Virus record (IMG/VR): IMGVR_UViG_3300045919_000631
Coordinates: 1 to 64,000 of that record
Source: a virus
Direction: 5' to 3' (one strand)
DNA: 64,000 nucleotides
Below, piece by piece: positions 3,211-25,381 of this stretch. Numbering within the stretch: position 1 is the stretch's first letter; the number at the start of each line of letters is the position of its first letter. The notes under the pieces are model-generated. The model made no database searches, was not told where the DNA came from, and saw only the letters and a list, made by a program, of their open reading frames with translations. A program made the translations under genes and the position numbers.

Positions 3211-3452
3211 GGTTTGATATCTTTAACAGCTTCAACCTCTTTCTGAAGAGCCTTTTTCTTTGACTTCACTGCTTTAACCACTGCTTTTTTATTAGTGGCT
3301 AAACGTTCAGCTTCTTCTTGGAGAAAGTCTGTTTGTCTATCATCATTGAGCAATTTGCTCTTAATCCAGTGATCAAGCCAAGCAGATCGGAAGATCCAGT
3401 AGCAAAGAGCTAGAAGACTGATTATTGCAAGAAATCGTTCGAAGAGAATCAT
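3207..3452 (-). CDS. small membrane-anchored coiled-coil protein
   Basis: N-terminal hydrophobic helix, Lys-rich tail, upstream of SPFH gene. Confidence 0.6.
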   Translation of the reverse strand: MILFERFLAIISLLALCYWIFRSAWLDHWIKSKLLNDDRQTDFLQEEAERLATNKKAVVKAVKSKKKALQKEVEAVKDIKP

Positions 3453-3460
3453 ACCTTATT

Positions 3461-4015
3461 TTATGACATTTCCTGTATAACTTTTTTCATTGCTGATTTA
3501 ATCTCTCGGAGATCTTTAGCAAGGTCTTTCTTTGTGTATGTGTCAAAACCTTTTTGCATTGCTGATGCAGCAATATCAAGTCCAACGTCTTCGAAGCGTT
3601 TAAGCTTCTCGAGCCAATAATCGTTTTGAAAAGCTCGCAGATCAGCCCGGATTTGATCTGGAGTCAAGGCCTCTCCGTCTCTGTTCAGAAAATATTCTGC
3701 GTCGCGACCAAGACCAAGCTCAAGCTCGGCATCGATATAATATGCACGCATACGCGGCGACAAATCAACGAAATCTTCATCAATGAGAGTTGAAAGATTA
3801 TAGCCTGATTTCTTTTTAGGATAATCATGCACAGTACCTTTGATGAAGCGAAATTGGCCATCTTCATTTACGCCAGTTTCAAGGTGACCCCAAAACTTCC
3901 AATGCTCATGCGGGGTACTATTTTCCCAGGCTCCATCAGAGAGTTGCCCAGAAATTTCGTGCTCCCAAATTGCGTGCAAGCCTTTACTAGGAAATAACCA
4001 CGTATGTTTGTTCAT
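3461..4015 (-). CDS. hypothetical protein
   Basis: 184-aa ORF behind GGAAA-N5-TAAAAT promoter variant (4024-4039). Confidence 0.7.
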   Translation of the reverse strand: MNKHTWLFPSKGLHAIWEHEISGQLSDGAWENSTPHEHWKFWGHLETGVNEDGQFRFIKGTVHDYPKKKSGYNLSTLIDEDFVDLSPRMRAYYIDAELELGLGRDAEYFLNRDGEALTPDQIRADLRAFQNDYWLEKLKRFEDVGLDIAASAMQKGFDTYTKKDLAKDLREIKSAMKKVIQEMS

Positions 4016-16586: not shown

Positions 16587-16663
16587 TGGTGGAGATGGTA
16601 GGACTCTAACCCACAGTTATAACTCGTTCGAAGCGAGGTCGGCTCTACTTTGCCAGCATCTCC
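16587..16663 (-). tRNA. tRNA-Arg(TCG), atypical D/T loops
   Basis: ctcg-ctTCGaa-cgag, acceptor ggagatg/catctcc, CCA. Confidence 0.7.
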
Positions 16664-17275: not shown

Positions 17276-17280
17276 GTAAA

Positions 17281-17405
17281 TGGAGTCGGATAGCGGAATC
17301 GAACCGCCTGTACTTCGAAGGTACGATCACCGTAGGCTTAATACCAACCAGGAGAGGCGTAAATGGTGCCTCTGAAGAGAATCGAACTCTATCTCCATAC
17401 CCGAC
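17281..17405 (-). ncRNA. two-headed tRNA-like RNA
   Basis: two TTCGATT T-loops, two acceptor-like stems, each followed by NCCA. Confidence 0.65.
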
Positions 17406-17411
17406 ATAAAT

Positions 17412-17495
17412 TGGTGCCCAAGGTGGGACTCGAACCCACAAAACCGGAGATTTTAAGTCTCTAAACTGTGCCATTCGCTATAAGGTCACAAGGGC
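17412..17495 (-). tRNA. tRNA-Leu(TAA), enlarged D-region, short variable arm
   Basis: gaga-ctTAAaa-tctc, T-arm gtggg-ttcgagt-cccac, CCA. Confidence 0.8.
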
Positions 17496-17501
17496 AAAAA
17501 A

Positions 17502-17592: not shown

Positions 17593-17680
17593 TGGCGGAA
17601 AATGATCGCATCGAACAATTACGGTTTTTGCCGTACTACTGATTTCAAGTCAGTTTGAGGAGCCAACCTCAGCATCTTCC
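17593..17680 (-). tRNA. tRNA-Ser(TGA), possible 8/4 fold
   Basis: actga-ctTGAaa-tcagt, long variable arm, G73. Confidence 0.85.
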
Positions 17681-22382: not shown

Positions 22383-22460
22383 TGGTGGAGAATAGGGGCA
22401 TCAAACCCCTCTGTATCATGATTGCAAATCAAGCGTCCACATCAAGCAGACCCATTCCCC
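22383..22460 (-). tRNA. tRNA-Ala(TGC)
   Basis: ttTGCaa loop, G3:U70. Confidence 0.88.
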
Positions 22461-22795: not shown

Positions 22796-22830
22796 AATTT
22801 ATGGTGGACTGACAAAGAATCAAACCATAT

Positions 22831-23043
22831 TTATCGATTTACTGTCCAAATATCATCTAAATCGTTTTGCTCATCTTCCTCGGATGGCTCCATACCAAAA
22901 GTATCATATGCTGAATCTTCTGGATTCCATACTTGCTCACCAGAAAACAAATGCTCTCCTTTGGCATTCTTTCCAACTGACTTGGAGCCTTTTAAAATTC
23001 TGTATCCAAGAGCGCTCCACTCTTTGAATGTTTTCGTTGTCAT
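22831..23043 (-). CDS. hypothetical protein
   Basis: KTFKEWSALGYRILKGSKS resembles ArdC-like ssDNA-binding motif. Confidence 0.6.
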   Translation of the reverse strand: MTTKTFKEWSALGYRILKGSKSVGKNAKGEHLFSGEQVWNPEDSAYDTFGMEPSEEDEQNDLDDIWTVNR

Positions 23044-23464: not shown

Positions 23465-23872
23465 TGGTGTAGGCGGCCGGATTTGAACCGGCGTGTATGC
23501 TGCCTTGTCAACCAGTTTCTACAAGTTTAGATTTATAAAATTCATAACGAGCAGCATAAATCAAACTGCATCGCAATTACTCTAACATTCTAACTTTCTA
23601 CTAGAACTGCGGATAAGGTTAGCCAACTCCGCAGTGCCATCTCACTGTTACGATTTGGTAGATAGTGAGAATCTTTACCAACTCGTTCACCTTTAATTAG
23701 GCGAATGAGAGCTCTCCGGACGGGATGGTGACTAGGTCACGAACCTTCGCGAAGAAACTCTTAACTGAATTTACAATGTTGTTTATTGTTTGAAGCGATA
23801 TTAAAGAGCATTGCATCATTGCTCTACTTGCTACTGGACTTTCCGGCATCATATAGAATCCAGAACGCCCAC
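23465..23872 (-). ncRNA. ssrA: tmRNA
   Basis: 5' gtgggcgttctggattc, 3' gccggttcaaatccggccgcctacacca, G3:U70; internal tag frame 23780-23697 ending ELSFA*. Confidence 0.9.
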
Positions 23873-25104: not shown

Positions 25105-25226
25105 AAAGTACTTTTTATTAGATCGGGGTTTAAAGCCGATTTGCCTTAACCATTAGGCTATCTTGGCATGGAGCCAGGAGTTGGATTTGAACCAACGTGT
25201 CTTTTAGACATTGCTGTGAGTACTTT
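25105..25226 (-). ncRNA. circularly permuted tRNA-like RNA (Y RNA/YrlA-like topology)
   Basis: order V-arm, T-arm, acceptor 3', loop, acceptor 5', D-arm, anticodon-like arm, closed by aaagtact/agtacttt. Confidence 0.75.
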
Positions 25227-25297: not shown

Positions 25298-25381
25298 TTG
25301 TAAGTGTACTGCCATACTATACTATGCGAGACCCGGCTAAACGTAATCCAGCAGGAGACTTCGAACCTCCCCTTCTTACAA
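25298..25381 (-). ncRNA. second circularly permuted tRNA-like RNA
   Basis: ttgtaag/cttacaa closing stem, T-arm ggagg-ttcgaag-tctcc, closed acceptor hairpin, D-arm with GG. Confidence 0.68.

Follow-up and report, generated by a model that had tools for sequence, protein, structure and literature searches.

Introduction

Mimics of transfer RNA (tRNA), such as transfer-messenger RNA (tmRNA), Y RNAs and the tRNA-like structures of viruses, are a recurrent way in which viruses and cells gain access to the translation and RNA-surveillance machinery, and to our knowledge all of the mimics described so far possess one acceptor-like end. Genes of real tRNAs can also be permuted (Cyanidioschyzon merolae and some archaea) or split (Nanoarchaeum), and here a bulge-helix-bulge is processed by the archaeal/eukaryal splicing endonuclease and a ligase to give a standard tRNA. 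In this work we describe an element of 125 nucleotides (nt) from the first 64,000 nt of the IMG/VR virus record IMGVR_UViG_3300045919_000631 (this whole stretch is called the window throughout), which lies on the minus strand from 17405 to 17281 inside a tRNA array and combines two complete acceptor/T-arm/CCA heads in one RNA. Such a two-headed, strand-swapped mimic is apparently undescribed, as no description of a strand-swapped pair with two complete CCA-ended heads was found in Rfam 15 or in the searchable literature, while tRNA-like non-coding RNAs, permuted tRNA-like genes and two-piece tRNA-like RNAs are already known kinds.

The permuted and split tRNA genes resemble the element in that their 3' part is encoded upstream of the 5' part and a helix of the flanks holds the parts together. 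In contrast to them, the element belongs to a bacterial phage with a tmRNA and with encoded CCA, its flank helix is itself a tRNA head, and it does not form a standard cloverleaf. The species 1 and 2 RNAs of phage T4 (rnaC and rnaD) are likewise stable non-tRNA RNAs encoded among the clustered tRNA genes of a phage, and their 3' end is tRNA-like, but they have a single T-arm/3' end, neither an internal CCA nor a second acceptor, and no sequence similarity to the element; they were considered as homologues and rejected, the architecture being different and the relation one of analogy only.

Related in topology is YrlA (RF02553; PMC4201824), which is also non-decoding, permuted in its order and closed by a helix made of the RNA's own ends, and of which phage examples exist. 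In Mycobacterium smegmatis cells, YrlA is cleaved by RNase P at its closed acceptor of 7 bp and receives a CCA tail, resulting in a two-piece RNA (Chen et al. 2014, PMC4201824). The closing helix of YrlA is a Ro60-binding module without T-arm or CCA, whereas that of the element is a second complete acceptor/T-arm/CCA head, and unlike YrlA the element encodes a CCA at both ends. Two-piece tmRNA and the tmRNA of mycobacteriophage DS6A, which consists of the tRNA-like domain (TLD) only, share with the element the gene order, a D-loop analogue containing GG, their presence in phages and possibly an activity without decoding. The TLD-only RNA of DS6A inhibits tmRNA whether it can be charged or not, perhaps via titration of SmpB (PMC4131195). 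Mature two-piece tmRNA consists of two base-paired pieces, as we propose it for the element, but the element has no mRNA-like part, no UUCGAC motif and no P2a helix, and its second piece terminates in another tRNA-like head. The start of its core, CUGG(N)UU, resembles the D-loop analogue of tmRNA 5' ends, with nothing more in common there.

A third related group are the 'enigmatic' tRNA introns of the Lak megaphages, one of which 'itself may encode a tRNA' (Devoto et al. 2019, PMC6784885). Those of minihelix shape share with the element a gene of ~115-140 nt with two T-arms, two CCAs and nested modules, the location in tRNA arrays of large uncultured phages and an inner module at which ordinary tRNA-trimming enzymes could cut. 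In these introns, an inner minihelix of normal order, composed of 5' strand, T-arm, 3' strand and CCA, sits in the anticodon loop of a complete tRNA, and its excision leaves two halves for ligation. The inner module of the element, in contrast, is permuted and located beside the acceptor, cutting would remove a 5-nt spacer only, and the outer unit is an incomplete tRNA.

Results and Discussion

Architecture of the element

The element is composed of a 42-nt unit ending in ACCA, a 5-nt spacer and a 78-nt unit of tRNA length ending in UCCA, with the 5' acceptor strands exchanged between the two units. Within each unit the ends pair poorly (2/7 positions in the 78-nt unit, GCCUCUC versus AUCCGAC, and 3/7 in the 42-nt unit), whereas pairing between the units is complete, with 7/7 positions in the outer and 6/6 in the inner acceptor (6/7 if the seventh position is counted). 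Due to this swap of the 5' strands the two units can therefore fold only together. The parts are, in 5' to 3' order of the RNA:

17399-17405, minus strand: 5' strand of the outer (head A) acceptor, GUCGGGU, with which the element and the 42-nt piece begin
17392-17398, minus strand: linker AUGGAGA from head A to T-arm B; AUG invariant in both lineages, the remainder variable
17375-17391, minus strand: T-arm B, (U)AGAG-UUCGAUU-CUCU(U)
17364-17374, minus strand: 3' strand of the inner (head B) acceptor, (C)AGAGGC, with discriminator A and CCA
17359-17363, minus strand: linker UUUAC, loop of the closed inner acceptor and predicted RNase E/RNase P processing site
17352-17358, minus strand: 5' strand of the inner (head B) acceptor, GCCUCU(C), where the 78-nt piece is predicted to begin
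17327-17351, minus strand: conserved core CUGGUUGGUAUUAAGCCUACGGUGA, with CYG/CGG closing it as a predicted D-arm-like hairpin
17309-17325, minus strand: anticodon-arm-like hairpin, (C)GUAC-CUUCGAA-GUAC(A)
17292-17308, minus strand: T-arm A, GGCGG-UUCGAUU-CCGCU
17281-17291, minus strand: 3' strand of the outer (head A) acceptor, AUCCGAC, with discriminator U and CCA; 3' end of the element

The resulting fold consists of two canonical acceptor/T-arm stacks of 7+5 positions, both with the standard spacing from T-loop to CCA and a single-stranded NCCA, which are linked on one side by the short linker and on the other by the 26-nt D-arm-like core and the small hairpin with its 7-nt loop. GUCGGGU pairs over all 7/7 positions with AUCCGAC (17285-17291), including one G-U, and the inner AGAGGC pairs 6/6 with 17353-17358, the predicted 3' end of the 42-nt piece being 17364. 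Upstream of T-arm B no strand pairs with the inner 3' strand; its partner is found 5 nt downstream of the inner CCA. A UUCRANY T-loop on a 7-bp acceptor followed by NCCA occurs twice, once per head, and this is the case in both phage lineages described below. A single U separates the core CUGGUUGGUAUUAAGCCUACGGUGA from the anticodon-arm-like hairpin, and the outer unit is devoid of a canonical D arm, anticodon arm and variable region. In the window copy the inner head shows C3-G70 and the outer head C3-G70 together with U73. Behind each of the two CCAs lies a spacer of the TTT/ATT type, as it is found behind every genuine tRNA of the array, and the inner spacer UUUAC is identical to the spacer at 17276-17280, which separates the element from tRNA-Arg(CCU). 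The two T-loops have the 9-mer GTTCGATTC in common and the two CCAs CCATTTAC.

A first, sequence-only reading of the window had listed the arms, the strands and the predicted 3' ends at 17364 and 17281, all of which we could confirm at their coordinates on the minus strand. It had also placed a second, permuted unit where the D-arm should be, and this is topologically correct, although the arrangement is described more simply as a minihelix gene followed by a tRNA-length gene with swapped 5' strands.

A second phage lineage with the same design

In order to find further members, IMG/VR was scanned for short T-arm units that end in CCA and have a second T-arm/CCA downstream of them at tRNA distance, using cross-pairing without self-pairing as a filter. 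Beyond the window a single locus (L251) passed this filter among the matches listed, and it is a true homologue. Among ~1,970 listed tandem T-arm/CCA pairs from ~240 other phage loci, cross-pairing without self-pairing was seen only there. A motif scan then gave three loci with the same sequence (L297, L298 and L300) and one variant (L302). These copies are 121 nt long, four of them identical and one variant, come from five different metagenome assemblies and sit within large tRNA arrays of another phage lineage, the records of which are ~7% complete. Zero detectable protein or DNA similarity was found between the five loci and the 109-kb genome of the window phage. As the same design is present in five other metagenome assemblies, an assembly artefact can be excluded as its source. 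The parts of the two lineages compare as follows:

Outer acceptor: window GUCGGGU/AUCCGAC; L251 and L302 GGGCGUG/CACGUCC
Inner acceptor: window GCCUCU/AGAGGC; L251 and L302 GGGCUG/CAGUCC
T-arm B: window (U)AGAG/CUCU(U); L251 and L302 GUGGG/CCCAC (in full GUGGG-UUCGAAU-CCCAC)
T-arm A: window GGCGG/CCGCU; L251 and L302 CAGUG/CACUG (in full CAGUG-UUCGACU-CACUG)
Hairpin: window GUAC-CUUCGAA-GUAC; L251 and L302 AGG-CUGAUCC-CCU, at the equivalent place
Linker from head A to T-arm B: window AUGGAGA; L251 and L302 AUGCAU
Inner spacer: window UUUAC; L251 and L302 UUUAA or UUUAC

Kept across the lineages are the AUG that follows the outer strand, ACCAUUUA(C/A), the lone A preceding T-arm A and the 26-nt core with the consensus CYGG(A)UUGSUAUWAAGC(C)UACGGUGA. 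The core is ~90% identical to CYGGAUUGCUAUAAAGCUACGGUGA of L251 and L302 (with a 1-nt shift), whereas the helices have almost no sequence in common. The ACCA of the inner head is invariant between the lineages, and position 7 of the inner acceptor is mismatched in both of them (C.C in the window, G.A in L251 and L302). The hairpin loops are 7 nt long and start with CU in both lineages but differ in their triplet, which is UCG in the window and GAU in L251 and L302. Both heads of L251 and L302 carry G3:U70 and A73, the alanine set, which is present on neither head of the window copy. L251 and L302 differ from each other in 5/121 positions, all of them structure-neutral: two variable T-loop positions, the last linker base, one change from A-U to G.U and one from C-G to U.G. 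Their upstream flanks are unalignable and downstream a block of ~82% identity is found.

Two further functions of conserved parts were considered and rejected. A small open reading frame starting at the conserved AUG varies in length and frame (23, 12 and 19 codons), and of the core sequence GGUGAUC, which might have acted as an anti-16S-tail sequence, only GGUGA is kept between the lineages. The hairpin loops contain self-complementary sequences in both lineages (UUCGAA in the loop CUUCGAA at 17314-17320 of the window, GAUC in the loop CUGAUCC at L251:4977-4983), which could permit a kissing dimerisation of two particles or be a coincidence. Directly upstream of the second-lineage elements, between the CCA of the preceding tRNA and the element, tiny units ending in GGCACCA are located, AUAACCCCGGGGCGGCACCA in L251 (L251:4870-4893) and ACAGCCGGCACCA in L302 (minus strand), which may be microhelix-like CCA-ended remnants or processing signals. 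The same lineage possesses tRNAs with the anticodon CUA, the amber-suppressor type (L251:435-508, L251:12366-12441 and L298:9952-10027), and these anticodons suggest that TAG might be recoded there.

Covariation and folding

The three distinct sequences (window, L251 and L302) were aligned using Infernal (alignment A5). In the four main helices with their 23 pairs 98.6% of the cells are standard pairs, and 16 pairs are changed on both sides: 5/7 in the outer acceptor, 5/6 in the inner acceptor, two in T-arm B and 4/5 in T-arm A of L251 and L302. None of 500 shuffles matched any of the covariation measures (0/500), and in slid controls, where the 3' partners were moved by 1-3 columns, 36-51% of the cells were paired with 1-3 double changes. 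RNAalifold independently gave the same helices and in addition a short CYG/CGG stem (columns 55-57/74-76) that closes the core as a D-arm-like hairpin. The four main helices are thus well supported by covariation. The sequence-only reading had called for a homologue search for covariation of both stems, and with the second lineage and its 16 compensatory pair changes the architecture with two CCAs and two acceptors that it had put forward is now supported. Its other option, a recombination chimera or recent rearrangement, is rejected in view of these changes and the conserved core.

Covariance models gave the same separation. With a model built from the window copy only (R1) the homologues scored 55-58 bits versus at most 42 bits for tandem tRNAs, and with the model from all three sequences (R2) the members reached 111-144 bits, while everything else in 1.4 Mb of phage tRNA arrays stayed at or below 40 bits. 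Borderline hits of the models (L295, L288, L299, L287 and others) were inspected as candidates and dismissed, since they are ordinary tandem tRNAs with self-complementary acceptors.

In unconstrained minimum free energy (MFE) folds, L251 and L302 form both acceptor helices and both T-arms, and the window copy forms both acceptor helices. Co-folding of the two predicted pieces (42 + 78 nt, and 41/75 in L251) brings back the outer as well as the inner acceptor helix, and compared to the separate pieces -13 to -17 kcal/mol are gained.

Distribution and searches against known families

The window phage contains one copy of the element, and whole-record searches showed its absence from G002-G004, which are complete relatives with 34-44% identity in a marker protein, and from one partial relative. 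Searching the core motif against 185,579 prokaryote genomes gave 18 matches, all in coding or chance contexts and none in an RNA context, and the matches of a half-motif scan (L305 and L306) were discarded as chance. In the phage database no near match was found, distant blastn hits being only ordinary tRNA-Leu genes, and the exact-junction pattern had no match in IMG/VR. The flanking 397-aa gene has its closest homologues at 50-56% identity; in 160 loci (1.2 Mb) around its relatives a tRNA array is almost never present and blastn found zero homologues of the element. The element is rare and patchy in its occurrence, and further lineages may exist, as the matches listed from IMG/VR are a lower bound.

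Standard tools, including every Rfam family, do not recognize the element. ARAGORN makes no call by default and only when forced to a low threshold (-ps80 -i) reports a SeC tRNA with intron, and ARAGORN -m finds no tmRNA on it. The Rfam tRNA model (RF00005) does not match 17281-17405, neither with the gathering threshold nor with a limit relaxed to E = 10, and it has no hit on L251 and L302. From the models for tmRNA, cyano_tmRNA and tmRNA_permuted (RF00023, RF01851 and RF04321) only an 11.7-bit partial T-loop match was obtained on the element and none on L251 and L302; a weak match to tmRNA_permuted (18.5 bits), which lies behind the element in L251 on its downstream side, was set aside because it overlies other odd tRNA-like units. 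The YrlA model RF02553 likewise gave no hit on the window element or on L251 and L302, its one 20-bit hit being an ordinary tandem tRNA pair. Among the proteins encoded in the 109 kb of the record, which correspond to ~52% of the genome, no match was found to TROVE (PF05731) or DUF2828 (PF11443), nor to SmpB, the CCA-adding/PolyA_pol family, RtcB or RNA_ligase.

Proposed processing and function

We are highly confident that the element is a real, selected and structured RNA with the fold described above. For the whole scenario, in which it would be processed to a two-piece, non-decoding tRNA mimic, we regard the chances as evenly balanced, and any named binding partner is at best improbable. 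In this scenario the element would be transcribed within the polycistronic tRNA array, and the tRNA-maturation enzymes of the host would treat both heads as pre-tRNAs, with RNase P cutting 5' of G17405 and 5' of G17358, while an RNase E-type cut in the UUUA spacers followed by exonuclease trimming would give CCA ends at 17364 and 17281. The 42-mer and 78-mer would stay paired via 13 acceptor base pairs and additionally via any tertiary contacts of the GG-containing core with the T-loops, so that all four ends of the particle would be protected in a tRNA-like context. Such a particle would present two tRNA top halves and the core to factors that read acceptor, T-arm or CCA, and it would do this outside decoding as a bivalent mimic, sponge or scaffold. 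Possible readers might be RNase P, the CCA-adding enzyme, T-loop modification enzymes, minihelix-accepting synthetases, EF-Tu, SmpB or toxins acting on the acceptor end.

Cutting at the inner linker appears plausible, because the spacer equals the genuine inter-tRNA spacers, the inner helix is of the 7+5 type used by RNase P, YrlA provides a precedent and co-folding of the pieces is favourable. As the helices and the acceptor identities are free to change and the core is frozen, we think that the heads are probably generic tRNA-shaped modules for processing, stability and recognition, and that the core would carry the specific function. Signs against decoding are the varying triplet (UCG versus GAU, with C37 in L251), the short stem of 3-4 bp and the single nucleotide before T-arm A. 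The element may act as a decoy, as the sequence-only reading had offered for a two-piece RNA with two CCA ends. In a more specific version, which we regard as doubtful, tRNA-processing enzymes would produce a heterodimeric RNA with both CCA ends being substrates of acceptor enzymes (AlaRS in L251 and L302), and this RNA would occupy or mislead a host factor for tRNA 3' ends or scaffold the core. Candidate host factors would then be a CCA-modifying defence toxin, SmpB/EF-Tu or RNase P, and stabilization and delivery of the 26-nt core would be an alternative role.

Several points weigh against this reading. All evidence consists of DNA sequence and computation. The thermodynamic stability is unremarkable, with z = -1.6 for the window copy, the MFE fold of which misses the T-arms. 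With two lineages and three distinct sequences the covariation is essentially one deep comparison, and the D-arm-like structure of the core is tentative. The inner loop ACCAUUUAM is nearly invariant and could work as an intact, uncut loop. Moreover the acceptor identity varies, the alanine set being present on both heads of L251 and L302 and on neither head of the window copy, and therefore no single partner of the synthetase type suits both lineages. The absence from three complete relatives shows that the element is dispensable for that phage group.

Alternative explanations

That the element is a non-functional by-product, i.e. a recent chimera of neighbouring tRNA or minihelix genes, a decaying pseudogene or an assembly artefact, is strongly disfavoured and in our view very improbable. 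tRNA arrays recombine readily, the T-loops repeat the 9-mer GTTCGATTC and the CCAs repeat CCATTTAC, the three complete relatives do not have the element, and the core contains TTGGTAT...TACGGTGA, which in ordinary tRNAs (L299) runs from U8-G9 through the D-stem and position 26 into the anticodon stem, a resemblance that suggests descent from tRNA parts. A by-product does not account, however, for the same architecture in a second lineage and in five independent assemblies with 16 compensatory changes and zero broken pairs, for a core which was kept while the helices turned over completely, for five differences between L251 and L302 that are all structure-neutral, or for the lack of any cross-paired tandem pair among the ~1,970 listed controls apart from the true homologue. 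A working decoding tRNA in two pieces, split or permuted and charged on one head, seems unlikely as well. It would read CGA via UCG in the window and AUY via GAU in L251, with the 78-nt piece providing a D-like arm, the anticodon arm and one acceptor strand and the 42-nt piece the rest. The 78-nt piece indeed has the length and arm order of a tRNA, the hairpin loops have 7 nt and a C-U start in both lineages, the window triplet UCG would fit arginine, the inner GCCUCU equals the 5' strand of the phage tRNA-Arg(ACG) (GCCUCUA) and is combined with a discriminator A on the inner head, and the array has many non-canonical but readable tRNAs overlooked by software, such as Ser(UGA) and Ala(UGC). 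Yet the loop triplet differs between the lineages, and in L251 and L302 the alanine set on both heads together with GAU and C37 would place alanine at isoleucine codons. The stem has 3-4 bp, with 4-5 nt between the D-like and the anticodon-like arm and 1 nt for the variable loop, the greatest conservation is found in the core and not in the loop, the Rfam tRNA model is silent even at E = 10, and the phage already encodes a tRNA-Arg(UCG) at 16587-16663.

Two other known RNA classes have to be considered as models for the function. A permuted-order mimic of the tRNA-like domain of tmRNA, which would bind SmpB and modulate trans-translation of host or phage, would agree with the order of the inner unit (T-arm, 3' acceptor with CCA, spacer, 5' acceptor and D-loop analogue), as in permuted tmRNAs, and with the core start CUGG(A)UU, which is also found in the tmRNA 5' ends of the window phage and its relatives (acceptor-NN-CUGGNUUCGAC). 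In addition, the heads of L251 and L302 carry G3:U70 and A73, the phage has its own tmRNA (23465-23872), and the TLD-only tmRNA of DS6A is a precedent (PMC4131195). We nevertheless consider such a mimic improbable: the common motif has merely 6-7 nt, the CGAC of tmRNA, the 2-nt spacer and the P2a helix are missing, the window copy lacks G3:U70 on either head, the second piece of 78 nt is too short to hold the mRNA-like reading frame of a tag, the motif GGNUUCGAC that is conserved at the 5' end of tmRNA is not found, and the three Rfam tmRNA models (tmRNA, cyano_tmRNA and tmRNA_permuted) as well as ARAGORN -m are silent on the element. As an RNA that associates like a Y RNA with a ring protein of the Ro60/Rsr type (TROVE or DUF2828), the element would be a relative of YrlA and of the permuted tRNA mimics of huge phages with a CAGCAA 'handle'. 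It would share with YrlA the order of T-arm, closed acceptor hairpin and D-like arm closed by the RNA ends (PMC4201824), and the same array harbours a handle-type permuted mimic (25105-25226) with a homologue in the relative G002, which encodes a DUF2828 protein. The element has neither the CAGCA(A) handle nor a Ro-binding strand of the GNCGAA type, its closing helix is a full acceptor/T-arm/CCA mimic, the Rfam YrlA model does not hit it, and G002 possesses the DUF2828 protein and the handle RNA but not the two-headed element, so this relation is quite unlikely too.

Significance

A conserved, non-decoding RNA with two complete acceptor/T-arm/CCA heads made from co-dependent units would be a new structural solution among tRNA mimics. 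If it is cut as proposed, it would represent a natural case in which RNase P-type processing turns a closed hairpin into a two-piece RNA, and if its ends are truly charged or targeted it would offer a direct experimental handle on a host factor for the recognition of tRNA ends that these phages must control. The element could also offer a compact natural design of a scaffold for RNA expression. More generally, it adds to the growing indications that the tRNA arrays of large uncultured phages contain several kinds of RNA derived from tRNA that are unseen by standard annotation, the others being minihelix introns and handle-type permuted mimics.

The window phage and its tRNA array

The window comprises the first 64 kb of the 109-kb record and originates from a large, uncultured phage of a wetland metagenome, a divergent myovirus with PHROG matches to baseplate and tail fibre and almost zero Pfam hits. 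Its tRNA array extends from 12.0 to 31.6 kb, is encoded entirely on the minus strand and contains 26 tRNAs called by ARAGORN, two further Rfam tRNAs and the tmRNA. Genes of the array referred to above are:

17275-17200, minus strand: tRNA-Arg(CCU), the next gene after the two-headed element, across UUUAC
16587-16663: tRNA-Arg(UCG) of the window phage
23465-23872: tmRNA of the phage, in the window array

For a check of the assembly, a 36-kb Logan contig from run X1, the probable source sample, was compared and found to be identical over the whole 3.2-kb stretch. The same phage is present, identical and at low coverage, in a second wetland metagenome from an independent study (X2), in which short contigs touch only both ends of the element. 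The sequencing runs listed with the stretch are two DNA wetland metagenomes and zero RNA runs.

Three tRNAs of the array (17593-17680, 22383-22460 and 17412-17497, all on the minus strand) were overlooked by ARAGORN and Rfam at standard thresholds. The first is a class-II tRNA-Ser(UGA) whose T-stem is weak, the second a tRNA-Ala(UGC) that has G3:U70 and the T-loop UUUGAUG, and the third resembles tRNA-Leu(UAA) but its acceptor contains two U-U mismatches. Together they provide serine and alanine, which are otherwise absent from the set of called tRNAs. A free-standing, CCA-ended minihelix gene of ~46 nt is located at ~22802-22847 (minus strand) and has no other parts than a stem resembling an acceptor, GGACAGU/UCAGUCC with two mismatches, and the T-arm UAUGG-UUUGAUU-CUUUG. 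The 42-nt piece of the two-headed element may have originated from a unit of this kind.

Other tRNA-like genes in the array and in relatives

The gene at 25105-25226 (minus strand) is a circularly permuted tRNA-like gene, in which the clamp helix AAAGUACU/AGUACUUU is followed by CACAGCAA, a V-hairpin and a T-arm, and then by the 3' acceptor UCCUGGC-U-CCA, a 1-nt linker, the 5' acceptor GCCAAGA, a D-arm and an anticodon arm with a 9-nt loop. Its homologue in the complete relative G002 (L170, G002:C1:36500-46000, minus strand, at ~3360-3500) shows the same order and the ACAGCAA motif, and its clamp is different but still a perfect 8-bp helix (AAGUAUAU/AUAUACUU), i.e. the clamp helix covaries. 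The DUF2828 protein of G002 is encoded at G002:24323-25102 (87 bits). The handle RNA at 25105-25226 carries CAGCA(A) after the clamp, whereas the two-headed element has AUGGAGA or AUGCAU there and CAGCA nowhere.

A 'closed-acceptor' tRNA mimic of YrlA-like topology lies at 25298-25381 (minus strand). It is closed by the strands UUGUAAG/CUUACAA and has, in addition to a T-arm and a D-arm, an acceptor hairpin that is sealed. In the complete 296-kb relative G003 we found two tRNAs with anticodon-loop inserts of ~51 and ~35 nt (G003:C1:199599-199721, L172, and G003:C1:280832-280940, L173). Their cloverleaves are otherwise perfect with acceptors of 7/7, and the inserts are rich in hairpins and not minihelix-shaped. 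They are thus small introns of tRNAs, and the phage that carries them has features of the bacterial type. Finally, an unrelated phage contig encodes a 127-nt tRNA-like unit (L388:9427-9553, plus strand) with a perfect closing acceptor of 7/7, a 3' T-arm and ACCA. Right after its 5' acceptor strand an extra T-arm-like hairpin, AAGCAGG-UUCGACU-CCCGCUU, is found without an inner CCA or acceptor, and the unit is thus a looser analogue of the design with two T-arms.

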